From the sequence record PV805633.1: a DNA stretch of 64,000 nt. The stretch is one strand, 5' to 3'. The DNA comes from a phage. Made by a program: the position numbers and the translations under genes. The notes under the pieces were generated by a model. That model saw nothing but the letters and a program-made list of their open reading frames with translations. It searched no databases and was not told the DNA's origin. This document shows positions 7,357 through 63,589 of the stretch, piece by piece (the stretch's first letter is position 1; each line of letters opens with the position of its first letter).

Positions 7357-9921
7357 ATGTTAGTCGCAGATACCAATCAATCAGCCACTTCAGCGACACT
7401 GGGTGGCAAAGAAGCAATCGCCTTTGGCATCTCTGATGACCCGGCATTCTTTCACGTATTAAGTACTTCCTTATATAACAACCCTACACTGGCAGTAGTC
7501 CGTGAGACTATCTGTAATAGTTGGGATGCTCATATTGAAGCAGGTAAGACTGATACTCCTATCCGTATCACTATTGATACTGACAATTTTATTACCTTCC
7601 GTGACTTCGGTAACGGGATACCAGATGAACTCATTGGTTCCATTTATGGCGTCTATGGTGCATCTACCAAGAAGTCCAACAGTAGTGTTACTGGTGGCTT
7701 TGGCCTGGGATGTAAATCCCCATTCGCTTATACAGATAGCTTCCAGGTTACTTCATGGAACCAGGGAAAGATGTCGGTATATAACGTAGCTAAGGCTGCA
7801 ATTGAGAATGATGGTAAACCGGGTATTGTTCCTATCGTTACTGGTATTCCTACTAAGGAATCTGGTCTGGAAGTTAAATTCCAGCTAGGTAAACATGATG
7901 TGAATACCTTTGTGCATTACATCACGTCAATTGTATTTAACGGTGAAATTAAGGCTGAGCTTAGTCTTCCCAAACTTGTTCGTGAAGAAACGGGTAATAG
8001 TATTCAGCAGGGTAACTATACTCTACTGAATACACTAGGTATGTCATTTGAACCTGGTTCATATGATATGTCTGATAGATGGTATCAAGGATATATGAGT
8101 AGCAGTAACATCTTTGTTCGCTACGGTAACGTAATGTACCCAATAGTATCTAGCCCGGCTAGTGAAGAAGCTGTAGGTCTTATTCTCAACTTCATGAATA
8201 TCATTGGAGCTGATAATTTAGTAGTTCAGGCTGCACCAAATACACTAGCGATTGCTCCTAGTCGTGAAACTCTGTCTAACCAGAAGTTAACCGACGACGG
8301 CATTACTGCTCTATGTGTAGACTTAGTAGACCGTATGGAGAAAGAGATTAAGGCTAAGATTCCTGAAGCTATTAAGCAGATTGAAGAATATGCCTCCCAA
8401 TCTTCTACTCGTTACTGGGAATATCCATCTTTCTTGGGTGCTGTTACATACAGAACTGTTCAACGCTATATGTCCTCTAGCTTGTGGGCTAAGCAACGTA
8501 AGCATCATATTAAGCACTGGCGTAATCTATCCAATAAGGCATTACTAGCTCGCCCTGAATATGCAGGTCTTAAGAGAATGTATGGTAAGGCTATGCGTGC
8601 TCTTAAGGATACCCGTAAAGATAGTACCAACCATTCTTTCCAGGATTTGGTATATCGACATCTGCACTTACCTCAGCTTGCTGCTTTAAAAGCTACTGGT
8701 GTTAAGTGGTCTGGTTACATAATGAACCAGGGTAACAGTGTTGGCCTGGTAAAAGGTAAACTTACTGACTACTTTAAGATGGGCTATAACTCCCACCTAG
8801 GTATCGGTATATTCACTACCAAGAACGTTGTAGTTACCCGACGTTTCTCTGACTGTGCAGACTCTTTCTCATACTTCCCAGAGTACAACCGAGGTGACCT
8901 GGAGCGTACAGCTTTTGTTCACGTCGTTGGTCCTAAGAAGGGAGAAGCAGAAAAAGCTGTAGCTAAGTTCACTGCTATGGGTTATCGGGTAATTGACCTT
9001 ACTCAATATAATGAGTGGGACAAGCCAACTAACTTCCGCAGGGAACAAGCTAAGTTAGCTGCCGAGAAGCGTGCTAAGACAATAGCTGCCAATAAAACCA
9101 AAGTAAGCGGTAAAACTAATGCACTGGTTTCATTGAATGCAGTACTTGGTACTACTCTTGTACGAGATAAAAGTGGTGATTTGGTAACTAAACCGGTCAT
9201 TGACAAGGCTTTTGCTGACCCAGCACGCCATGAGAAGTATGGTTTCGTCGAAGTAGAACAGCCTAAGTACTACGTACCAGCCAGTCAGGTTGTTTCTGGT
9301 AGACCAGAAACTGCCAAGATTGGAACCATGTGGAAATGGTATGAACTGTCTGATGAGATGAAAGCAGGAACTGTTGTCTGTCGTAATCAAATCGAAGTTA
9401 ACAAAGCCAAACGTCGTGGGGCTATTCACATTGACGATATTCGTCTTAATGAATTGATGTCTGTTATTACCAGCAAGGGATTCAAGAAGTACGCCACTGA
9501 ACAACGTAATGGTGTTCTTGAGTATCTTGATTTAAATGACAAAGAGTACTGTGAAATCCTCGATATTCTTGGACTAACATTCAAACCATTACAGAGTCTG
9601 GTTCTTAAACCAGAGTATGAATGGGCATGTAACTTCCTAAGAAATCATTCAAGTAACAAAGATAAACTGGTTGAGATGGGCCTCATTAAGTCAGTAGATG
9701 ACTTGGAACCATATGTAAAGATGGTTAATCCTCGTATGCATAAGCATTTCAAAGTACTTAACGAGTACAAAGGGTTATTTAGATATAGCTGGAATGATAA
9801 TGACATCCTGCAAAGCCTGGATTTGAGTAGATTAATCAAACATCTCAAGAAAAATCCGGAGGATATTCCTGGATTTAAGTCCCTCTACCGTAATCGTCTA
9901 AATAAACTGAAAGGTAACTAA
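7357..9921 (+). CDS. rIIA: rIIA-like protein with N-terminal GHKL-type ATPase motifs
   Basis: 854 aa; N-box-like ICNSWDAH and G1-box-like DFGNGIPDE; GGAGAG RBS; size and position as rIIA-like genes of N4-type phages. Confidence 0.65.
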   Translation: MLVADTNQSATSATLGGKEAIAFGISDDPAFFHVLSTSLYNNPTLAVVRETICNSWDAHIEAGKTDTPIRITIDTDNFITFRDFGNGIPDELIGSIYGVYGASTKKSNSSVTGGFGLGCKSPFAYTDSFQVTSWNQGKMSVYNVAKAAIENDGKPGIVPIVTGIPTKESGLEVKFQLGKHDVNTFVHYITSIVFNGEIKAELSLPKLVREETGNSIQQGNYTLLNTLGMSFEPGSYDMSDRWYQGYMSSSNIFVRYGNVMYPIVSSPASEEAVGLILNFMNIIGADNLVVQAAPNTLAIAPSRETLSNQKLTDDGITALCVDLVDRMEKEIKAKIPEAIKQIEEYASQSSTRYWEYPSFLGAVTYRTVQRYMSSSLWAKQRKHHIKHWRNLSNKALLARPEYAGLKRMYGKAMRALKDTRKDSTNHSFQDLVYRHLHLPQLAALKATGVKWSGYIMNQGNSVGLVKGKLTDYFKMGYNSHLGIGIFTTKNVVVTRRFSDCADSFSYFPEYNRGDLERTAFVHVVGPKKGEAEKAVAKFTAMGYRVIDLTQYNEWDKPTNFRREQAKLAAEKRAKTIAANKTKVSGKTNALVSLNAVLGTTLVRDKSGDLVTKPVIDKAFADPARHEKYGFVEVEQPKYYVPASQVVSGRPETAKIGTMWKWYELSDEMKAGTVVCRNQIEVNKAKRRGAIHIDDIRLNELMSVITSKGFKKYATEQRNGVLEYLDLNDKEYCEILDILGLTFKPLQSLVLKPEYEWACNFLRNHSSNKDKLVEMGLIKSVDDLEPYVKMVNPRMHKHFKVLNEYKGLFRYSWNDNDILQSLDLSRLIKHLKKNPEDIPGFKSLYRNRLNKLKGN

Positions 9922-9925
9922 TCTG

Positions 9926-11977
9926 ATGAAAATCGAACTGATTTCTATCATCGCACTGGCAGTTGACAGTCGTAACCTTACACTGTGGAAGCCAGATGGC
10001 TCTACGGTTGTATACCCTCAGAGCGACCCACGGGTTGCTCGTATTGTATCTGAAGCACAGACTAAAGGTCTGGGCACTACCCAGGATCAAATAGAAGTAA
10101 ACATTGCACCAGAAGTAGAACTTCGTACTGAATACCTGGAAGCAGAGAAAAACACCAACGGATTCGTTCGTTTCTTTAAGGTAGCTAAAGCTAAACTCAA
10201 AGAGTTCTTCGAAGATGGTACGGGTGTTTCACCAGCCCGTATCGTCTCAGATATTAAGCTAGGTAATCCTACTAAGACGCTGGTGTCTAAAGCTATGGAT
10301 ACCTACCTGGCTATTCAGGCTAATGAACCAGAAGTAACAGTAGCAGATGGTTACTACGACAAACGTGACAATCTGATGTGGGTTACTGGTTGGGATAAAG
10401 ACCATAACCATCTTGCACTGGTTCGTTTTATTAACGACGTACTTTGTTGGAGTCATAAGCATACTGATCATATTCTTGCACAGGAGTGGCCTATTGCAAT
10501 TCGTGCAGTATCCGATGATGAAATGGGTGAGTTTGCTAAACAAGCCCAATACATCAAAGGTGTACACATTGTATTTACCAACCGTGGGGAAACACCACTG
10601 CCTTATGTGGAAGTGGTTAAAACTACGAACCAGGATAAGCTGGCTGCTGCTTCAGAGAAGCTGGCTGCATTAGGTGCTATCAGTACCGATGATGCTAACT
10701 TCCATACTGATGTGAAGGAAGACGAGGTGGTTGTTGCTGTTACCAATAGTGGGGTTATCCCTGGAGTTGAGAACCTGCAACGTCATCTACGTCAGTCTGC
10801 CAAGCTGAAAGACTATAAGGGCTTTACCAAGTTCCTTGAGCGTCTGGCTCCGGTTATCAAAGACCGTCTGCACTCAGTGGAAGACCTGATGAAGTTCATG
10901 GAAACTGCTGAACTGCCTATCGCTGATGATGGCTCCATCCTGTTTCTGAAACGACTTAAGATCAAAGGCGAAGAAAATGGTAAACGTGTATTCGTTGACT
11001 GTCACTCAGGCAACATCCGTCAATGGGTAGGCTGTAAAGTACAGGTACGAGAAGACCTGGTAGACCCTGACCGTCGTCGGGACTGCTCCAATGGCCTGCA
11101 CGTAGCATCCATGAGCTACATCCGCACCTTCGGTGGTAACGTAACTATCCTAGGTAAAGTAGCACCAGAAGATGTATTTGCTGTTCCTGAGTACAACACT
11201 AATAAGATGCGTGTAGCTGCGTATCACATTATTGCTGAACTACCGGAAGAGGAACGTTGCAACGTTAACAATGGTATCTATCTGTCTAATACAGAAGTAG
11301 GTAAGAAGTTACTTAATGATGCCATCGTTGGGAACCATAGTTCACCTACCACACTTGTTATGGTTGGCGGACATCGTGGCACTAACCTCAAATACACCAA
11401 TCTATCATCTGGTTCCGTAGAACAATTCCGTACAGTTGCTAATAAAGAGGCACTGAATATGGAAGAGTCACTGAATGAAGCTTTAGCTGCTGAACCAGTG
11501 AAGGCTACTGACCTTAAACCTATTGTTAATAAGGCTCCTACCGTGAAAGAACAAATCCAGGAACTGATTAAAGAGTTCCTTAACGCAACTACTCCGGAAG
11601 ATAAATTAGCTGCTGCTGACTTACTTGTGGAAATGCGAGGTAAGGCTCGTAAGCCATGGGCTGCTTTAGGTGTTGGTTCTGATGTGGTGGCTAAGATTGC
11701 TGATGTACGTACAACCTACACAGCTAAACCTATTGGCAAACCAAAACCAGTGAAGCAAGCTAAGGTTCATCGCTCGGCTACTGCCACTAAGGTAGCACCG
11801 TCAGGTAAACACGCTGATAACCTGCGTAGCATCCTGAACGATACGTCCTACTCTGACTATCAGAAAGGTCATGCTCTGCAAGACTATAAGCGTCATGCTA
11901 AGAAGTCATTCACTGCAATGGGACTGACAGAAGAAGAAGCTAAGTTGGCTACCAAGCTGGTCAAGGCCGTTAAGTAA
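9926..11977 (+). CDS. rIIB: rIIB-like protein (assigned by size and adjacency to rIIA-like gene)
   Basis: 683 aa ORF immediately downstream of rIIA-like gene; no motif-level support. Confidence 0.45.
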   Translation: MKIELISIIALAVDSRNLTLWKPDGSTVVYPQSDPRVARIVSEAQTKGLGTTQDQIEVNIAPEVELRTEYLEAEKNTNGFVRFFKVAKAKLKEFFEDGTGVSPARIVSDIKLGNPTKTLVSKAMDTYLAIQANEPEVTVADGYYDKRDNLMWVTGWDKDHNHLALVRFINDVLCWSHKHTDHILAQEWPIAIRAVSDDEMGEFAKQAQYIKGVHIVFTNRGETPLPYVEVVKTTNQDKLAAASEKLAALGAISTDDANFHTDVKEDEVVVAVTNSGVIPGVENLQRHLRQSAKLKDYKGFTKFLERLAPVIKDRLHSVEDLMKFMETAELPIADDGSILFLKRLKIKGEENGKRVFVDCHSGNIRQWVGCKVQVREDLVDPDRRRDCSNGLHVASMSYIRTFGGNVTILGKVAPEDVFAVPEYNTNKMRVAAYHIIAELPEEERCNVNNGIYLSNTEVGKKLLNDAIVGNHSSPTTLVMVGGHRGTNLKYTNLSSGSVEQFRTVANKEALNMEESLNEALAAEPVKATDLKPIVNKAPTVKEQIQELIKEFLNATTPEDKLAAADLLVEMRGKARKPWAALGVGSDVVAKIADVRTTYTAKPIGKPKPVKQAKVHRSATATKVAPSGKHADNLRSILNDTSYSDYQKGHALQDYKRHAKKSFTAMGLTEEEAKLATKLVKAVK

Positions 11978-11992
11978 TAGCCTGTTCAAATG

Positions 11993-12016
11993 CCCTCACT
12001 TATAATAAAGTGAGGG
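11993..12016 (+). other. intergenic hairpin (9-bp stem CCCTCACTT/AAGTGAGGG, 6-nt loop), possible weak terminator or regulatory structure
   Basis: Perfect inverted repeat after the rIIB-like stop; no strong U-tract. Confidence 0.4.
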
Positions 12017-12039
12017 TAAATTTGAAGAGGAAATGTACT

Positions 12040-12435
12040 ATGAGTTCTGTATACAGAGTTAATCGCAAAGCAACTGATGAAGACATCATTCGTATGAATG
12101 CTGTTGGTCTATCCCTCGCAACTATCGCTAAGACGTTGGGGGTTCACCCCACTACGGTTACTTTGCGATTGCGTTCTTTAAACATTGAACCAGCCGACAC
12201 ACGTCGGACGTTCATGGAGAATGTACTCCGTCCATTACCAACCCATGTGGTAGATTGGCTATCAGAGCAAGTTGGTCCTGCTTATGAGATTCGTTCATAT
12301 GTAAGGGACTTGATTCTGGAGGCATATAATAATCGCCACCTTAACCAAGAGAGTGAGCATGACAAGTTCATCCGTTTGTACGCTGGAAAACACACGGCAA
12401 TGGTTTCTAAAAGCCGTACCAAATCCGACGAGTAA
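12040..12435 (+). CDS. putative helix-turn-helix DNA-binding protein (131 aa)
   Basis: NAVGLSLATIAKTLGVHPTTV HTH-like segment; GAGGAAA upstream of ATG 12040. Confidence 0.5.
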   Translation: MSSVYRVNRKATDEDIIRMNAVGLSLATIAKTLGVHPTTVTLRLRSLNIEPADTRRTFMENVLRPLPTHVVDWLSEQVGPAYEIRSYVRDLILEAYNNRHLNQESEHDKFIRLYAGKHTAMVSKSRTKSDE

Positions 12436-12481
12436 GAATATTAGTACCCAGATTGGTTGCCATCTGGAAGAAGTATGTGAA

Positions 12482-12820
12482 ATGTTAGACGAGTTAACTC
12501 CTTCATGCGAAGAAAGTATGCAGGTATTAGCTGAAGCACAATCTGCTTTAAGTAAACTGTCCTTACTCATGAAAACAAATCACACAGCTGTTTTCCCAGA
12601 AGATGCCAATCGTTTGGCTCTCCTGGATGCACTGGCAGATCAGATTGTTACAGCAACTGGCGTCGGTACTTTTCTTGGGATGAATGTCCCTGGAGCATTG
12701 GCTGAAGTCAATCGCTCAAACTATTCCAAGTTCGAAGATGGGGAACCTATCTTCAACGAGAATAAGAAAGTCATGAAGGGGAAAGATTATACTCCCCCTG
12801 ATTTAACACCTTACATCTAA
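12482..12820 (+). CDS. hypothetical all-alpha protein, possibly MazG-like NTP pyrophosphohydrolase (start uncertain; frame open from 12353)
   Basis: EEVCEMLDE acidic motif; track ORF overlaps the upstream gene by 83 nt, so ATG 12482 chosen. Confidence 0.35.
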   Translation: MLDELTPSCEESMQVLAEAQSALSKLSLLMKTNHTAVFPEDANRLALLDALADQIVTATGVGTFLGMNVPGALAEVNRSNYSKFEDGEPIFNENKKVMKGKDYTPPDLTPYI

Positions 12821-12841
12821 CCCTCTACGGAGGGTTTTTTA
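12821..12841 (+). terminator. Rho-independent terminator (CCCTC/GAGGG + T7)
   Basis: 5-bp GC stem, 4-nt loop, 7 T. Confidence 0.65.
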
Positions 12842-12853
12842 CTGGAGATTTAA

Positions 12854-14164
12854 ATGTTTTCCAAACCTACCAAAGCCCCATTGAACCAGGGGCAAGAAGC
12901 GGTTGCGAAGGAGTTCTTCGACTTCCTGCTCGACCCTAATGCCACAGAGTTCGGAATCAGTGGACCTGGAGGGACTGGTAAGACATTCCTGATGTCGCAC
13001 CTAATTGATGACACTATGCCTGCGTATATGGAAACCTGTTCTCTGATGGGAACCAAGCCTCTGTATAACGAAGTTGTCATGACTGCGACCACGAACAAAG
13101 CTGCTGAAGTTCTGGCTCAAGCTACTGGGCGTCCAACGTCTACCTATCACTCCTTCCAGGGACTGATTGTTAAGAATGACTTTAAGACTGGTGAGGCTAA
13201 TGTCGTACCGTCTAAGTCATTCTCTATTAAGAAGAACAAAATCATCTTCGTAGACGAAGCATCCATGATTGACCGTCAGTTACTTAAGTATGCTCGTGAA
13301 GGTACTCACCAGTGCAAACTGGTATTCGTAGGTGATGCTTCTCAGCTTCTACCTGTTAAAGAGAGTAAGTCTCCAGTGTACGCAGGTAATATCCCAACAC
13401 ACTATCTGACTGAACAGATGCGTACCGATTCACCAGAACTCAAAGCGTTGCATCAGCAATTGCGTGATACGGTGGAAGGTAAGACAGGCTTCCTGCCTAT
13501 TAAATGTATTCCAGGCATTATTGACTGGGTGCAAGGAGAAGAGATGGAGAAACTGGTTCTCAGTCACTTCACTCAGCCTACCAATAGCCGCATTGTTGCT
13601 TACACCAATGACCAGGTTATTAATTACAATAACTACATTCGTGAAGCTAACGGCTACGTAGGTGAATACTCCATTGGTGAGCAGCTAGTCTCTAACTCAG
13701 CTGTTCGCTTGGGCGTGGATGACCGTCTGTCTATCGAGCAGGACGTAAAACTCATCGACCAGGATAGTAGTACTCGAATGATTAAGGTTACAGGTGACCT
13801 GGAACTGGAAGTCCGTGATAGTACTCTAGACCTTGGTTATGGTGGTATTGTTAGTGAAGTACCAGTTCCTACCGACCCAGACTACTTCAACCGTTTGGTT
13901 AAGTGGTTAGGTAAAGAGAAGAACTGGGAACCTTACTTCCGCCTTAAAGAAACCATTCCAGACCTACGTGCTACTCATGCATGTACTGTTCATAAATCAC
14001 AAGGCTCTACTTATGACACAATCTTCATTGATGCAGATGACCTCTCAAGCTGTCGCCAACCAGATATGGTTGCTCGTCTGCTTTACGTCGCTGTGTCTCG
14101 TGCCCGTAAGCGAGTAGTGTTCTATGGCAATCTTGCCAGTAAGTACGGTGGCCTAACTTTCTAA
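12854..14164 (+). CDS. SF1 DNA helicase (Dda/RecD-like)
   Basis: Walker A GPGGTGKTF, Walker B IIFVDEASM, C-terminal TVHKSQGSTYD motif; 436 aa. Confidence 0.8.
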   Translation: MFSKPTKAPLNQGQEAVAKEFFDFLLDPNATEFGISGPGGTGKTFLMSHLIDDTMPAYMETCSLMGTKPLYNEVVMTATTNKAAEVLAQATGRPTSTYHSFQGLIVKNDFKTGEANVVPSKSFSIKKNKIIFVDEASMIDRQLLKYAREGTHQCKLVFVGDASQLLPVKESKSPVYAGNIPTHYLTEQMRTDSPELKALHQQLRDTVEGKTGFLPIKCIPGIIDWVQGEEMEKLVLSHFTQPTNSRIVAYTNDQVINYNNYIREANGYVGEYSIGEQLVSNSAVRLGVDDRLSIEQDVKLIDQDSSTRMIKVTGDLELEVRDSTLDLGYGGIVSEVPVPTDPDYFNRLVKWLGKEKNWEPYFRLKETIPDLRATHACTVHKSQGSTYDTIFIDADDLSSCRQPDMVARLLYVAVSRARKRVVFYGNLASKYGGLTF

Positions 14165-14174
14165 GGGAGGGTAT

Positions 14175-14705
14175 ATGCCTCAGATTGGTTCAGCGACTAT
14201 TGGTCAGGTTGCCAATAGCAGTGAGATAGTCAAACACCTGTTCTTAGCAGAACTGGTTCGTCTTGATGGTGTGTTAAATGGCATTATTGATAAGAATGAT
14301 CGTATCAATGGCGTAGACGTATCGGCTGGATTCCTTCACCAAGGGGAGTTCTATCAGCGTTCCAATGCTACCAGACCCCCAACCTACGGTGAGCGATTAA
14401 CGCTTAATCCAGAACTTTGGCCTGCAATGGACAAGTATCTGAAAGCCTCCAGTCGTCTGATTATGGAAGTACACCTTGTGAACCAGACTGTATATCGACT
14501 GGTTCGTGGTTGTATGTCCTATCAGGATGTACGTGATGCTCTACCTGAATGCCTGGTAGCACAAGACCAGACTGGTCAGTACAAAGGACTACCACGTACT
14601 CGTGAAGCAGCATGGACTCTTGCTGGTGATGCTATGGCAATCAAACAGTATGAGAAGATTCTTCCTTCTATTGAGTACTATGCAGCTTCACATCTGATCT
14701 TCTAA
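14175..14705 (+). CDS. hypothetical protein (176 aa)
   Basis: GGGAGGG SD upstream of ATG; lies between helicase and DNA polymerase. Confidence 0.6.
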   Translation: MPQIGSATIGQVANSSEIVKHLFLAELVRLDGVLNGIIDKNDRINGVDVSAGFLHQGEFYQRSNATRPPTYGERLTLNPELWPAMDKYLKASSRLIMEVHLVNQTVYRLVRGCMSYQDVRDALPECLVAQDQTGQYKGLPRTREAAWTLAGDAMAIKQYEKILPSIEYYAASHLIF

Positions 14706-58548: not shown

Positions 58549-59230
58549 CTGTAATGTCCTCATCTGCACGTACTAGTTTAGAACCAGCAATCTCTTTAGT
58601 AGGTACACCACTATTGATTGCATTAATTTGCTGTTCAGCTAATGCAGCAAGTGTTGCCTTGAGATCAGTCAACCCAGAGTTCTCTCTCAAGTCCAGATTG
58701 ATATTTGTTACCTGGTCTTTTGGTTTAGCTAAATGAGTAAGGATAGAGTTAGCTGCATCACATCTTACCTTCTCACTTACTGCTGTAGTCATCAGTTCAA
58801 CCTGAACATTGATTGCCTTCTGATAGTTGTCTTGGTTCACAATCCATACTGGAACCAGACTTTGTTCCATGATGAGGTTAACTAACTTACCCCTGTGATA
58901 AGCAGAGACATAAGCACTAATATCTTTCTCACTGGTTCCCCGTGCTACAAGTTCTGCTTGTCGGTTAGGGAATGTTTTGAAGTAGGCTTCCTTATTTGAA
59001 TAGCCCATGTGTTTGTAAGTCACATACTGAACTGCATTCATGTAGTCCTGTGTCTTAAACTTACCCTCCTTCATAACACCAGAGTAAGAGATGAAGTTTT
59101 CACGGAATGCTTCAGCAACCAGTTGGTCTTGGGTTATGTTGTTAATTGTGTCTACCAACTCCTGGCTTACACTGTTCTTGAAGTTAGCAGGTAAGGCATT
59201 AATGATCTGCTGCTTAGTTAGCTCTCTCAT
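58541..59230 (-). CDS. hypothetical protein upstream of terL (229 aa), possibly small terminase subunit
   Basis: Position immediately 5' of terL with translational coupling; no motif support. Confidence 0.5.
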   Translation of the reverse strand: MRELTKQQIINALPANFKNSVSQELVDTINNITQDQLVAEAFRENFISYSGVMKEGKFKTQDYMNAVQYVTYKHMGYSNKEAYFKTFPNRQAELVARGTSEKDISAYVSAYHRGKLVNLIMEQSLVPVWIVNQDNYQKAINVQVELMTTAVSEKVRCDAANSILTHLAKPKDQVTNINLDLRENSGLTDLKATLAALAEQQINAINSGVPTKEIAGSKLVRADEDITDV

Positions 59231-59276
59231 ACTTATCTCTCTACAAAGTTATGTCTATTAACGAAGATTCTTTTCT

Positions 59277-59291
59277 TGGGGTGAGTTACCC
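59277..59291 (+). promoter_or_regulatory. short hairpin GGGGTG-AGT-TACCCC (6-bp stem incl. one G-U, 3-nt loop with central G), candidate hairpin promoter
   Basis: Architecture resembles N4 vRNAP promoter hairpins (5-7 bp stem, 3-nt loop); ~110 nt upstream of the first early-type gene. Confidence 0.25.
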
Positions 59292-59401
59292 CTTGAAGAA
59301 ACTCTAACACACAGTTACACTTTAGTCATGATATAGAAAAAGTTCATGATACTAAATAGTATGTAATGTTCCGATGACCCTATTCCCAAAAGGAGTAACC
59401 T

Positions 59402-59692
59402 TTGAGAATCTATATGAGAGTCATCGACTCTAAAGACGAATACTCAGAGATAGACCACACCAAAGCTGGCTTTATGGCTGGTGATATAATCCTTACCCAT
59501 GACGAAGATACATTCCATGAGTTATCTGGAATGATGCTGTTAGAGAACCGTCCTGGTGTTAAAGTCTTAGAACCGCAAGAAACTTACTCTTTAGAAAAGT
59601 CTATTCCATCTCTTGTGTTCTTCACAAAATTACCTCATAGTGTCTCCATCAAACGAAGCAAAGATAGCGTTCGGATGACGGTGATGATGTGA
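59402..59692 (+). CDS. small early-type protein, paralog family member 1 (96 aa; TTG start)
   Basis: AAGGAG 6 nt upstream of TTG 59402; shares a motif with the next three genes. Confidence 0.5.
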   Translation: MRIYMRVIDSKDEYSEIDHTKAGFMAGDIILTHDEDTFHELSGMMLLENRPGVKVLEPQETYSLEKSIPSLVFFTKLPHSVSIKRSKDSVRMTVMM

Positions 59693-59892
59693 TTAGTCAT
59701 ACCGCCTAGTAGACAGTGGCGGTACTCGTAAAGAGTTAATAACTTCTACAGTCAGGGTTCCCCGGCTCCTTTCCTACTCCGTAGGTCTAACGGTACATAA
59801 GTACCTAGGGGGGTGAACTGACCCGTGATTGAAAACGGTAAGGGGTAGGGTCGAGAGGCTCTACCCCATTTCTTTTCTGGAGGAATGCAATT

Positions 59893-60291
59893 ATGAGCAT
59901 CTACGCTTTTGATATTGATATTACTGGAGTACTCCGTAAACAGGAACCCTATTACCTTGGGGAACCAGAAGTAGTAAGTAAGTTCACTACCCCGTGGCAA
60001 ACAGTATTCTTACCTGACTGTGAAGAGTCCCATGAAGTAATTGGTTCTCTTTTCTTATCCAACCTTCAACTTAACACTGTGATATTGTCTGAACCAAGGG
60101 TGTATGACCTTATCTATTATGATGGGTTTAACGAGTTCTTCCCCGGCATACGCTTCTATAAGATAGATGGTTGGGAATTGATAGCTGACCATAACGTATT
60201 TAATAAAACACTTTCCATTTACTTCAGACCTATCCCTAAAGGAAGGAAAATCAATCATGAAATTCAAAATGACTATCCCCAGTTTTGTTGA
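59893..60291 (+). CDS. small early-type protein, paralog family member 2 (132 aa)
   Basis: GGAGG SD; motif TVFLPDCEESHEVIGSLFLSN. Confidence 0.6.
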   Translation: MSIYAFDIDITGVLRKQEPYYLGEPEVVSKFTTPWQTVFLPDCEESHEVIGSLFLSNLQLNTVILSEPRVYDLIYYDGFNEFFPGIRFYKIDGWELIADHNVFNKTLSIYFRPIPKGRKINHEIQNDYPQFC

Positions 60292-60301
60292 GGGGGAATC
60301 T

Positions 60302-60571
60302 ATGTACACAACTGACTTCTCTTTAGAAGAGGTCATGAACAGCAACCCCCAGCAAGTAATCCTGGTTCCTACCTTAGAGAATTATCACGAAGTAAGGGGT
60401 CAACTCTTCTTAGCAGGCAATGACCGTAAGGTTGTATGCATTATCCCACCTTCTGTCTATACCAACTATAACGCTAATGACCCCATACCGTACATGCTGG
60501 TATCCGATGAATACCAATGGGATAGTCGCTATGAGAATGATGAATATCATTACTACTATGTAAGGAAGTAG
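60302..60571 (+). CDS. small early-type protein, paralog family member 3 (~89 aa)
   Basis: GAGGGGGAA SD before ATG 60302; motif QVILVPTLENYHEVRGQLFLAGN. Confidence 0.55.
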   Translation: MYTTDFSLEEVMNSNPQQVILVPTLENYHEVRGQLFLAGNDRKVVCIIPPSVYTNYNANDPIPYMLVSDEYQWDSRYENDEYHYYYVRK

Positions 60572-60574
60572 GGT

Positions 60575-60886
60575 ATGCACCTGTACTGCCTGATTAGCTA
60601 TGCCACTACCTGTTATCTATCCCCGTATACAATGGATAATATCCTGGCAGGTAAGGGGAGTGTTGCCACCATCCTATATGAACCAAGTGAAGAAGCAGAA
60701 GTATTCCTGGGTACTTGCTTAATACTGGGGCAACCTATCCAGTTCATTAAGATAGTGGATTCTGTGGAAATACCGGAGCACACCTGTGTGTACATACTGT
60801 CTGATAAAGAGCCTATGGTAGCTACTACTCTTACAGGTAGACTCATTACCCTTTACCCTTCCTCCTATTTAACTGCTTATAAGTGA
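60575..60886 (+). CDS. small early-type protein, paralog family member 4 (103 aa)
   Basis: Motif ATILYEPSEEAEVFLGTCLILGQ aligned with members 1-3. Confidence 0.55.
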   Translation: MHLYCLISYATTCYLSPYTMDNILAGKGSVATILYEPSEEAEVFLGTCLILGQPIQFIKIVDSVEIPEHTCVYILSDKEPMVATTLTGRLITLYPSSYLTAYK

Positions 60887-61088
60887 GATAGCTACAATAT
60901 TTTTGCATGTCGATTTCATCATAGCTATGTGTAGCTACAGTGGTGTGACTGGGGCTACACCCTTACACTCAACCATCCCCCCCGGTATGTTGACCCTGTA
61001 GCCACTACCCTACCCCACCTTACACGTTACACGTTGCTCCGCAACCTATGGACATGTCGTCCTATCATCAACTATTGGAGCTATCATC
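60887..61088 (+). promoter_or_regulatory. palindrome- and repeat-rich intergenic control region (candidate promoter/operator cluster)
   Basis: Palindromes ATAGCTAT and GTAGCTAC (three TAGCTA cores within 50 nt), direct repeats TACACGT x2 and CTATCATCA x2, -35/-10-like TTGCAT-17-TATGTG. Confidence 0.4.
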
Positions 61089-61412
61089 ATGACTACTACC
61101 GCTACTGTACGTATGACCGCAGGAACTCTGCTGGGTACTGTTAACTCAGCTGCTACTACTGTTGCAGATTCCTTCGGTGCTGCAACAAAAGCAGTTGGTA
61201 TGCTTAATTCTTATGTAAGTACTATGGCAAAGAAACAAGCCATTCGTACTAAATTAGAAATGCATACTTTCGAAAACAAATTAGCTGAAGAAACAGCTAT
61301 GAACGAGACTCTTCGTAAGAAAAGTATCGAAGAATTCTGCAAAGATCCAGAAAACGCTCGTATCTACAACGCAGAATATTCAAGAATAATTGACATCCTG
61401 TCTAAAGACTAA
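61089..61412 (+). CDS. hypothetical protein (107 aa)
   Basis: TGGAG upstream of ATG. Confidence 0.55.
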   Translation: MTTTATVRMTAGTLLGTVNSAATTVADSFGAATKAVGMLNSYVSTMAKKQAIRTKLEMHTFENKLAEETAMNETLRKKSIEEFCKDPENARIYNAEYSRIIDILSKD

Positions 61413-61415
61413 ATC

Positions 61416-61442
61416 AATAGGAGGCTCTTCGAGCCTCCTATT
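61416..61442 (+). other. perfect 12-bp hairpin (AATAGGAGGCTC / GAGCCTCCTATT, 3-nt loop) directly after the stop codon
   Basis: Perfect inverted repeat; no U-tract; the 12-mer AATAGGAGGCTC recurs at 63563-63574 in the terminator. Confidence 0.5.
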
Positions 61443-61648: not shown

Positions 61649-61832
61649 AATGTCCTTGAATCTAAATCACCGTAAGAAATTCTGGATATCTTACATACCC
61701 TAAAAGACAACGACGCTCCGCGTCTTATGGATGATGTAAATGCATCCACTAATCATTGAAATTTTATCCTTTTGTTTGGGTGTTCTCACCGACGAGTTCA
61801 CCCGTAATTCACATAAATCTGGAGAGTACAAA

Positions 61833-63551: not shown

Positions 63552-63589
63552 AGGAGTCCTCCAATAGGAGGCTCCTATTTTTTATTTTT
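63552..63589 (+). terminator. Rho-independent terminator (10-bp stem with 1-nt bulge, AATA loop, long T-tract)
   Basis: AGGAG(T)CCTCC-AATA-GGAGGCTCCT followed by ATTTTTTATTTTT. Confidence 0.75.

Follow-up and report, generated by a model that had tools for sequence, protein, structure and literature searches.

A right-end array of four small genes in a G7C-like, N4-like coliphage: a tandem paralogue family with a candidate regulatory RNA between gp70 and gp71

Four small genes lie one after another on the + strand at positions 59,402 to 60,886 of a 64,000-nucleotide stretch of phage DNA (sequence record PV805633.1), the whole of which is called the window below. Positions 59200-61100 are 96.6% identical to Escherichia phage vB_EcoP_G7C and have matches in 69 phage records in total; judged by this similarity, the phage of the window is a G7C-like, N4-like coliphage (Schitoviridae, Enquatrovirinae, Gamaleyavirus). 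The G7C annotation lists the four open reading frames (ORFs) as the hypothetical proteins gp70, gp71, gp71.1 and gp71.2. A sequence-only reading of the window had described them as a tandem array of diverged paralogous early genes, of the kind found in host-takeover or anti-defence families under arms-race selection. Its four + strand ORFs were recovered at the same positions, and all four peptides that it quoted were found exactly. The genes are the following.

59402..59692, + strand: gp70 orthologue, first array member; TTG start, 96 amino acids (aa); phrog_7213 (E=1e-41)
59893..60291, + strand: gp71 orthologue, second array member; 132 aa; phrog_9160
60257..60571, + strand: gp71.1 orthologue; 104 aa; phrog_11661
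60575..60886, + strand: gp71.2 orthologue, the most diverged and the last gene before the terminal repeat; 103 aa; phrog_12099

The core motif reads DIILTHDEDTFHELSGMMLLEN in gp70 (59483-59548), TVFLPDCEESHEVIGSLFLSN in gp71 (60001-60063), QVILVPTLENYHEVRGQLFLAGN in gp71.1 (60353-60421) and ATILYEPSEEAEVFLGTCLILGQ in gp71.2 (60665-60733). G7C gp70 is annotated as a 92-aa protein from an ATG at 59414; the TTG at 59402 is the likelier start, because AAGGAG lies 6 nt upstream of it and an ATG occupies the aligned position in N4. The gp71 and gp71.1 frames overlap by 35 nt (60257-60291), and since this overlap is kept in several Gamaleyavirus loci (e.g., G7C and the loci labelled L012, L014 and L017 in our collection), translational coupling is suggested. 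The four proteins have isoelectric points of 4.6-5.8, and most relatives are likewise mildly acidic, with a few basic members; the family as a whole consists of soluble, mostly mildly acidic alpha/beta domains of about 85-135 aa, and the AlphaFold2 models described below (gp71.1 and gp71.2) show no long hydrophobic helix. The orthologues are treated by PHROGs as four separate families (7213, 9160, 11661 and 12099), with 16338 and 12606 added for extra copies. Cross-matches between these families were nevertheless present: gp70 matched phrog_16338 (5.7e-5), gp71 matched phrog_11661 (E=0.011), and gp71.1 matched both phrog_16338 (7e-4) and phrog_9160 (0.13). Literature searches on gp70-gp72, their essentiality or their transcription returned nothing relevant except papers on phage LUZ7 and a review of the N4 RNA polymerases, and no paper was found that treats gp70, gp71, gp71.1 and gp71.2 as paralogues.

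In G7C, the leftward genes gp68 (large terminase) and gp69 are followed by the array and then by a feature annotated as "contains terminal repeat"; gp69 is small-terminase-like (terS-like) and lies on the - strand. Bases 1-1160 of G7C are identical to its bases 71758-72917, and window position 60946 is the counterpart of G7C base 1, which shows the window to be a permuted assembly. In linear form, the genome ends on its right side with the array as its final coding block, immediately before the right terminal repeat, and the genes that follow the array in the window are the left-end early genes gp1 (61089), gp2 and onwards. The array was thus found on the + strand between gp69 and the right terminal repeat or gp1, and the G7C genes gp70, gp71, gp71.1 and gp71.2 and the N4 genes gp70 and gp71 are its direct orthologues, with shared order, strand and position.

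By sequence comparison, the homology among the four copies is real and uneven in strength across the pairs. In Smith-Waterman alignments tested against 2000 shuffles, gp71/gp71.1 (z 8.9) and gp70/gp71.1 (z 3.65, p=0.007) stood above the shuffled controls, gp70/gp71 was weak (z 1.3), and the pairs with gp71.2 fell below, so that pairwise alignment bears out the claimed paralogy for only a part of the array. The two consensus patterns proposed earlier fared similarly when taken literally: the first fits gp71 only, and the second fits none of the four genes. What lasted was their register, which is kept in all profile-profile alignments with the families of related phages.

These families were obtained from 18 related loci, in which every + strand ORF between gp69 and gp1 was extracted and clustered by BLAST. 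The clusters comprised F0 (gp70 together with downstream paralogues, F0b), F1 (gp71), F3 (gp71.1), F2 (gp71.2), F4, F12 and F13; the unrelated array inserts F5 (with an HExxH motif) and F10 served as negative controls. Leave-one-family-out hidden Markov model (HMM) scores were 23.6 bits for gp71, 25.8 bits for gp71.1 and 16.7 bits for gp70, against shuffled maxima of 6.1-7.0 bits and a window-ORF background of at most 4.8 bits. The gp71.2 protein scored 1.0 bit against the HMM of the gp70, gp71, gp71.1 and F12 families and 22.1 bits against that of F4, F12 and F13; F12 itself scored 15.9 bits against the F0/F1/F3 profile, and F4 12.5 bits against the F0/F1/F3/F12 profile. On these scores, gp71.2 is a member only through intermediates (F4, F12 and F13) that have no copy in the window phage. 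Profile-profile comparison by hhalign gave probabilities of 93% for F0a-F0b, 96% for F0b-F3, 83% for F1-F3, 65% for F3-F12 and 68% for F0b-F12, with 71% (F2-F4) and 49% (F2-F12) for the gp71.2 family, while the control families stayed below 1% and at about 0 bits in the HMM comparison. With profiles built without the family under test, the strand-helix core with its invariant glycine was accordingly recovered in all four genes, for gp71.2 only via the F4/F12/F13 profile. The description as a tandem array of diverged paralogues therefore holds for all four genes, gp71.2 being included through the intermediates and the predicted structures, and relatives carry up to four further members.

AlphaFold2 was run with separate alignments for gp71.1 and gp71.2 and gave models with mean confidence (predicted local distance difference test, pLDDT) of 71.8 and 83.5, respectively. 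Both have the identical element order b-b-a-b-A-b-b-b-b-b, in which the motif corresponds to strand 3 and the long helix, i.e., to a beta-strand predicted to be buried (h-h-L-V-P) and, after it, a long helix that carries the invariant glycine (D/E-E-x-x-H/E-E-h-x-G-x-h-h-L). A cupin-like beta-barrel, considered from an LxPGE..IP.GE pattern, was rejected because the models place this motif in a strand and a long helix of an alpha/beta domain. A Foldseek search of BFVD with the gp71.2 model returned 17 matches at E<=1e-3, the named ones being small proteins of N4-like phages, and all matches with E<=0.1 were small proteins of the same phage group. Assignment of the accessions to families by exact-sequence look-up identified M9PK98 as the EC1-UPM gp71.1 orthologue (E 9e-5, TM 0.63), A0A3G3MCF9 as the OLB145 gp71 orthologue in the N4 gp71 cluster (E 3.5e-6), A0A514CUI2 as the gp70 orthologue of Achromobacter phage Axy12 (E 5e-4), K4MQ72 as F4 and A0A067Y0E2 as F0b (the gp70 paralogue); three further matches were proteins of Pseudomonas phage Zuri encoded by consecutive right-end genes. 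The Foldseek probability of the gp71.2 model against models of other families was 1.00. Since this model matches those of gp71.1, gp71 and gp70 orthologues, all four families share one fold on evidence independent of the sequence comparisons; membership at the fold level was found through the gp71.1 and gp71.2 models together with the BFVD models of gp71.1, gp71 and gp70 orthologues, F4 and F0b. The fold is apparently new.

The family had no match in Pfam, the PDB or the literature, and it appears to be undescribed. A profile search of 1.84 billion representative proteins yielded 17 matches at E<=1e-3 (17 clusters), all of 54-132 aa, and all those with a traced source came from N4-like phages. 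The search for the family in other N4-like genomes, suggested with the original description, found members across several Schitoviridae genera: with tblastn against phage records, gp70 had 89 and gp71 69 matches, compared with 465 (Schitoviridae) for gp69, and the gp70 matches include Klebsiella, Achromobacter and Pseudomonas phages. For gp71.2, 221 homologues were collected, and the longer contigs carrying them are nearly all about 70 kb. The same right-end slot is filled by the family in Klebsiella phage KP8, Achromobacter phage Axy12 and Pseudomonas phage Zuri at the level of fold and motif inspection, whereby the fold matches of Axy12 and Zuri were mapped to the slot genes and those of KP8 were assigned to the slot by matching lengths only. 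Pseudomonas phage inbricus has a gp70 orthologue in this slot.

In phage LUZ7, the slot is occupied by a cluster of 29 ORFans (gp87-gp115; PMC3715699), which directly follows an N4 gp69-like gene, lies on the strand opposite to the late genes and extends to the right terminal repeat. These ORFans, at LUZ7 68698-74345 (8699-14346 of our locus L027), were originally reported without recognisable features, yet they share a ..L..KY.KE...W motif. Like the array of the window, the LUZ7 cluster consists of tandem diverged small paralogues (26 BLAST pairs, E<1e-3), but it represents a different family of 54-75 aa with a KYxKE motif, probably helical as far as the sequence indicates, and has 29 copies compared with 2-8 in the array family. 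It was rejected as homologous because the best LUZ7 match to the core HMM was not below E=5 and because both the motif and the lengths differ. The common Schitoviridae feature is thus the slot rather than the family. Unrelated inserts also occur in it: L004 5338-5652 and L012 4903-5265, with equivalents elsewhere, encode a 104-aa protein with an HExxH-like LVHELNHF sequence (phrog_1365) and a 120-aa protein (phrog_4301), respectively.

Copy number of the array varies among relatives, with two genes in N4 (F0-F1), four in the window phage and G7C (F0-F1-F3-F2) and six to eight in other Gamaleyaviruses and in Moo19. The other Gamaleyaviruses add two to four of F4, F0b, F5, F10 and F12 to F0-F1-F3-F2, while Moo19 and Jgk1 have different orders. 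The four window genes were present in every Gamaleyavirus locus examined, with gp71.2 split in L010, and the varying tail consists of F4, F0b, F5, F10, F12 and F13; the four genes form the conserved head of a rightward-transcribed array in a fixed Schitoviridae slot. In L010 (4683-5009), gp71.2 is divided into ORFs of 52 and 45 aa on an otherwise intact phage contig of 70.6 kb, which reflects either a pseudogene or a sequencing frameshift.

A trace of such variation lies in the window itself, within the 3' end of gp71.2.

60858..60875, + strand: recombination/deletion junction, CTTCCTCCTATTTAACTG, encoding ..PSSYLTA..

Window positions 60575-60874 align to gp71.2 of relatives and positions 60858-61127 to the 3' end of the relatives' last array gene and the DNA downstream of it; the two alignments share 17 nt, and the intervening genes of relatives (0.64-1.6 kb) are missing here. 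The last array gene of several relatives, belonging to two families (F0b and F4), ends in ..PSYLTAYK, as does gp71.2 of the window. The junction is the footprint of short-homology recombination between copies. The array grows and shrinks as its copies recombine with one another and at a right boundary that stays fixed. A deletion here, rather than an insertion elsewhere, seems the probable direction of the event, whereby the four-gene state looks like a deletion derivative.

Selection was measured as pairwise Nei-Gojobori dN/dS, the gene-wide ratio of non-synonymous to synonymous change. The values were 0.22 for gp70, 0.20 for gp71, 0.15 for gp71.1 and 0.28 for gp71.2, compared with 0.02 for gp69 and 0.07 for gp1, and a test for an excess of non-synonymous change across the four genes was negative. 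Ratios of 0.15-0.28 identify the array ORFs as real genes under purifying selection. The arms-race selection proposed earlier was therefore not borne out at the gene-wide level, and gp70 and gp71 are kept across phage subfamilies. The array genes are nevertheless 7-13 times less constrained than gp69, and dS is higher too, which together suggest mosaic exchange; the looser constraint and the varying copy number are hence compatible with an accessory or anti-defence role.

Between gp70 and gp71, a gap of 200 bp holds a structured element with the following parts.

59693..59892, + strand: structured non-coding element with hairpin 1, a pseudoknot, a conserved block and a terminator-like hairpin
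59701-59723, + strand: hairpin 1, GC-rich with an 11-nt loop, ACCGCC-TAGTAGACAGT-GGCGGT
59712-59716 / 59745-59749, + strand: pseudoknot between loop GTAGA and TCTAC
59738-59755, + strand: conserved block AATAACTTCTACAGTCAG
59842-59877, + strand: hairpin and T-run resembling an intrinsic terminator; the gp71 ribosome-binding site GGAGG follows after about 5 nt

The conserved block has the form AATAAC(N)TCTACAGTCAG, and the pentamer of the hairpin loop pairs with it. The element was found at the same position in N4, Jgk1, IME11, KP8, JWAlpha, Axy12 and inbricus, the gap measuring 200 bp here, 210 bp in N4, 256 bp in KP8, 258 bp in Axy12 and 250 bp in inbricus. Nucleotide identity is 0.92-0.97 at 59681-59730 and 59781-59880 and 0.55 in the variable stretch at 59731-59780, so that most of the gap is more conserved in nucleotides than the surrounding genes. 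The pseudoknot covaries: GTAGA/TCTAC here is replaced by GGAGT/ACTTC in N4, GGAGA/TCTTC in KP8 and GCGGA/TCCGC in inbricus. In an alignment of eight sequences from six genera, 97.7% of the cells of hairpin and pseudoknot were paired and 5 of the 11 pairs had changed on both sides; none of 500 shuffles came up to this share of paired cells or to the covariation score, and 35-62% was obtained with slid controls. The terminator stem also covaries, and the fold z-score was -2.2. Rfam gave no match in 59693-59892 even at E<=10, and no tRNA was present in the 200-bp gap. A scan of the sequence collection for AATAACNNTCTACAGTCAG produced 10 matches, of which 8 were unrelated coding sequence and only those in JWAlpha and Axy12 were true.

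The element, which appears to be undescribed, could be a 3' untranslated region, an attenuator for gp71-gp71.2, a separate small RNA or a single-stranded DNA structure. It can be compared with structured leader or attenuator RNAs that act in cis and with small RNAs of phages. As in these, a hairpin and a pseudoknot are combined with a subsequent intrinsic terminator directly before a downstream operon and show covariation, but the window element matches no Rfam family. Because the terminator follows gp70, expression of gp71-gp71.2 probably needs read-through or control at the element, and an RNA ending in this terminator may gate the expression of gp71 to gp71.2.

The timing of array expression was considered next to the promoters and the intergenic region around it.

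59231..59401, no strand assigned: divergent gp69/gp70 intergenic region with a hairpin, direct repeats and the gp70 Shine-Dalgarno sequence
61033-61045: P1 orthologue, GTTGC-TCC-GCAAC-CTATGG, upstream of gp1 and downstream of the array
61712-61724: P2 orthologue, GACGC-TCC-GCGTC-TTATGG, upstream of gp2 and downstream of the array

In N4, early promoters are confined to the left end, which enters the cell first, transcripts of RNAPII (middle) are restricted to the genome's leftmost 50% and late transcripts run leftward in the right half (PMC4496689). Rightward right-end genes are thus outside all three described N4 transcript classes. Promoters of the virion RNA polymerase (vRNAP) have a 5-7 bp stem, a 3-nt loop and, on the template strand, a purine at -11, G at -10, G at -8 and C at +1 (PMC4496689); on the coding strand, the N4 promoters read GTTGC-TTC-GCAAC (P1) and AAGAAGC-TCC-GCTTCTT (P2). 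The early region proper is marked by their orthologues in the window. Ahead of the array, no vRNAP hairpin promoter was found, and the 3-nt-loop hairpins located upstream of a gene (59417 and 59773) fail at -8. A candidate vRNAP early promoter at 59773 (CCTAC-TCC-GTAGG) was rejected since it fails at both -8 and +1 and lies in the least conserved stretch. A sigma-70 scan gave no consensus match upstream of gp70 or gp71.

The designation of the array as early, made in the sequence-only reading, did therefore not hold: the array lacks the left-end location of N4 early genes, as no further coding block separates it from the right terminal repeat, no vRNAP hairpin promoter precedes it, and the LUZ7 cluster at the same position is middle-phase. 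The genes look early because circularly permuted assemblies put the array beside gp1. The LUZ7 cluster is the only such array with transcription data, and middle-phase transcripts extend over its 29 small right-end genes (Putzeys et al. 2022, PMC9163698). From the genome position and by analogy with LUZ7, the array of the window is most likely transcribed in the middle phase. The divergent gp69/gp70 region presumably holds the promoters of both genes. Within it are a hairpin, GGGGT-GAGTT-ACCCC with TTCTT/AAGAA on its two sides, two direct repeats of TCATGATA and the Shine-Dalgarno sequence AAGGAG (59390-59395); across 14 Gamaleyavirus loci its columns have a mean identity of 0.95-0.99, higher than in the coding sequence on either side, and long blocks are invariant out to N4 and Moo19. 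Neither a sigma-70 consensus nor a vRNAP-type hairpin promoter was recognised in 59231-59401.

The best explanation overall, which we hold with moderate confidence, is that the four genes, orthologues of those of G7C, form one tandem paralogue family in a right-end array that is expressed in the middle phase and encodes host-interaction binding modules. The proteins would act stoichiometrically, each copy binding a different host or phage partner, and the array would constitute a family of accessory genes for host interaction. The family as a whole shows no conserved catalytic residues, and gp71.2, F4 and the Zuri copies have lost the motif histidine; small partner-binding accessory proteins are the best guess. 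Several observations weigh against this explanation. Smith-Waterman z-scores are below zero for gp71.2 with each of the other three genes, and its membership rests on intermediates and predicted structures because a direct sequence link within the window is absent; confidence of the gp71.1 model is only moderate (pLDDT 72). A terminator stands directly ahead of gp71, and a promoter for gp71-gp71.2 was not found. Gene-wide selection is purifying (dN/dS 0.15-0.28), and the conservation of gp70, gp71 and the RNA element across subfamilies is easier to reconcile with a core role in the phage than with a host-specific accessory role. Moreover, both function and timing are inferred for every member.

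A convergent or chance origin of the resemblance, for gp71.2 or for all four genes, which would then be unrelated small ORFans sharing a strand-helix pattern, is highly improbable and already largely refuted. It could draw on the non-significant pairwise scores of gp71.2, its 1.0 bit against the core HMM and the failure of the literal consensus patterns to include it, but the transitive profile links lie well beyond the shuffled scores and keep the motif in register, the independently computed AlphaFold2 models have the same order of elements, Foldseek gave probability 1.00 with matches at E<=0.1 limited to N4-like phage proteins across the whole of BFVD, and the F5 and F10 controls remained below 1% in hhalign and near 0 bits. 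More weight, albeit still on the doubtful side, is due to a core function tied to the genome end, such as terminus replication, concatemer processing or packaging, or the middle-to-late switch, for which the extra paralogues would be sub-functionalised. It is favoured by the deep joint conservation of gp70, the RNA element of about 200-260 bp and gp71 in six genera with RNA covariation, by a location beside gp69/gp68 and the terminal repeat that stays the same in every genus examined and by purifying selection. The LUZ7 authors, too, proposed a replication-related role for their middle-transcribed right-end cluster (PMC9163698), which would fit a core function here as well. However, gp70 occurs in 89 tblastn records compared with 465 Schitoviridae records with gp69, the LUZ7 slot is filled by an unrelated family, no nucleic-acid-binding or enzymatic signature was found, and gp71.2 is seemingly disrupted in one otherwise intact genome.

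The interpretation given with the first description, namely an early host-takeover or anti-defence family under an arms race, is unlikely; on this view, each paralogue would inhibit a different host or defence protein right after DNA entry. The proteins are indeed small, soluble, mostly mildly acidic and without known function, copy number and composition differ among close relatives, including one phage with a split gp71.2, dN/dS is 7-13 times that of gp69 with dS raised as well, suggesting mosaic exchange, and unrelated small genes (F5 with HExxH, and F10) share the slot. On the other hand, the right end enters the cell last according to the N4 model (PMC4496689) and lacks a vRNAP hairpin promoter ahead of the array, the LUZ7 analogue is middle-phase, and gene-wide dN/dS is well under 1. 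The window genes are, moreover, the invariant head of the array, with gp70 and gp71 persisting in Escherichia, Klebsiella, Achromobacter and Pseudomonas phages, which is unusual for host-specific counter-defence. Anti-defence or accessory islands of lytic phages, e.g., clustered anti-CRISPR or anti-restriction loci, are a suitable comparison: the array resembles them in its small proteins, its gene content varying among close relatives, its faster evolution than that of neighbouring genes and its fixed slot. Unlike in such islands, no array member matches a characterised inhibitor in Pfam or PHROGs, no regulator gene was recognised among the array genes, and the head is conserved across host genera.

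Six PHROG families of unknown function turn out to form one tandem-amplified fold family, which gives structural and functional studies a single target in place of six orphans. The plausible mis-annotation of the array as early is corrected, and across Schitoviridae the slot serves as a general site for accessory genes, which LUZ7 fills with another family. The RNA element, with compensatory changes across Escherichia, Klebsiella, Achromobacter and Pseudomonas phages, is a candidate new phage regulatory RNA. N4-like phages serve as models of transcription and are of growing use in therapy; if the proteins do bind host factors, the array would be a source of new inhibitors. Tentatively, and as a possibility rather than an expectation, the slot flanked by the terminase genes and the right terminal repeat may hold a conserved, undescribed Schitoviridae module, in which a lineage-amplified family without a solved structural relative is combined with a cis-acting RNA gating transcription from gp70 to its paralogues, or with a phage small RNA, as one regulatory unit for a step of the N4-type infection cycle.

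Some further observations concern the records used and the neighbouring DNA. The gp70 and gp71.2 proteins of this phage type (P0092, P0237 and P0239) are recorded on a 2.76-Mb "Enterococcus faecium" contig, likely through contamination or a chimeric assembly. In Klebsiella phage vB_Kpl_K57alpha1.2 (L019, OY979416.1 31056-38902), the annotation as deposited is shifted relative to the sequence: DNA polymerase, primase and exonuclease features sit over the terminase and array region. The gp1.2 region of G7C (790-1156) is missing from the window phage at about 61650, where G7C 546-790 and 1156-1300 match adjacent window segments. Directly after gp1, at 61416-61442, there is a perfect 12-bp hairpin with a 3-nt loop (AATAGGAGGCTC-TTC-GAGCCTCCTATT), and a hairpin with a related stem (AATAGGA-GGC-TCCTATT), followed by a T-run, lies at 63563-63579; both may be early terminators or regulatory hairpins.

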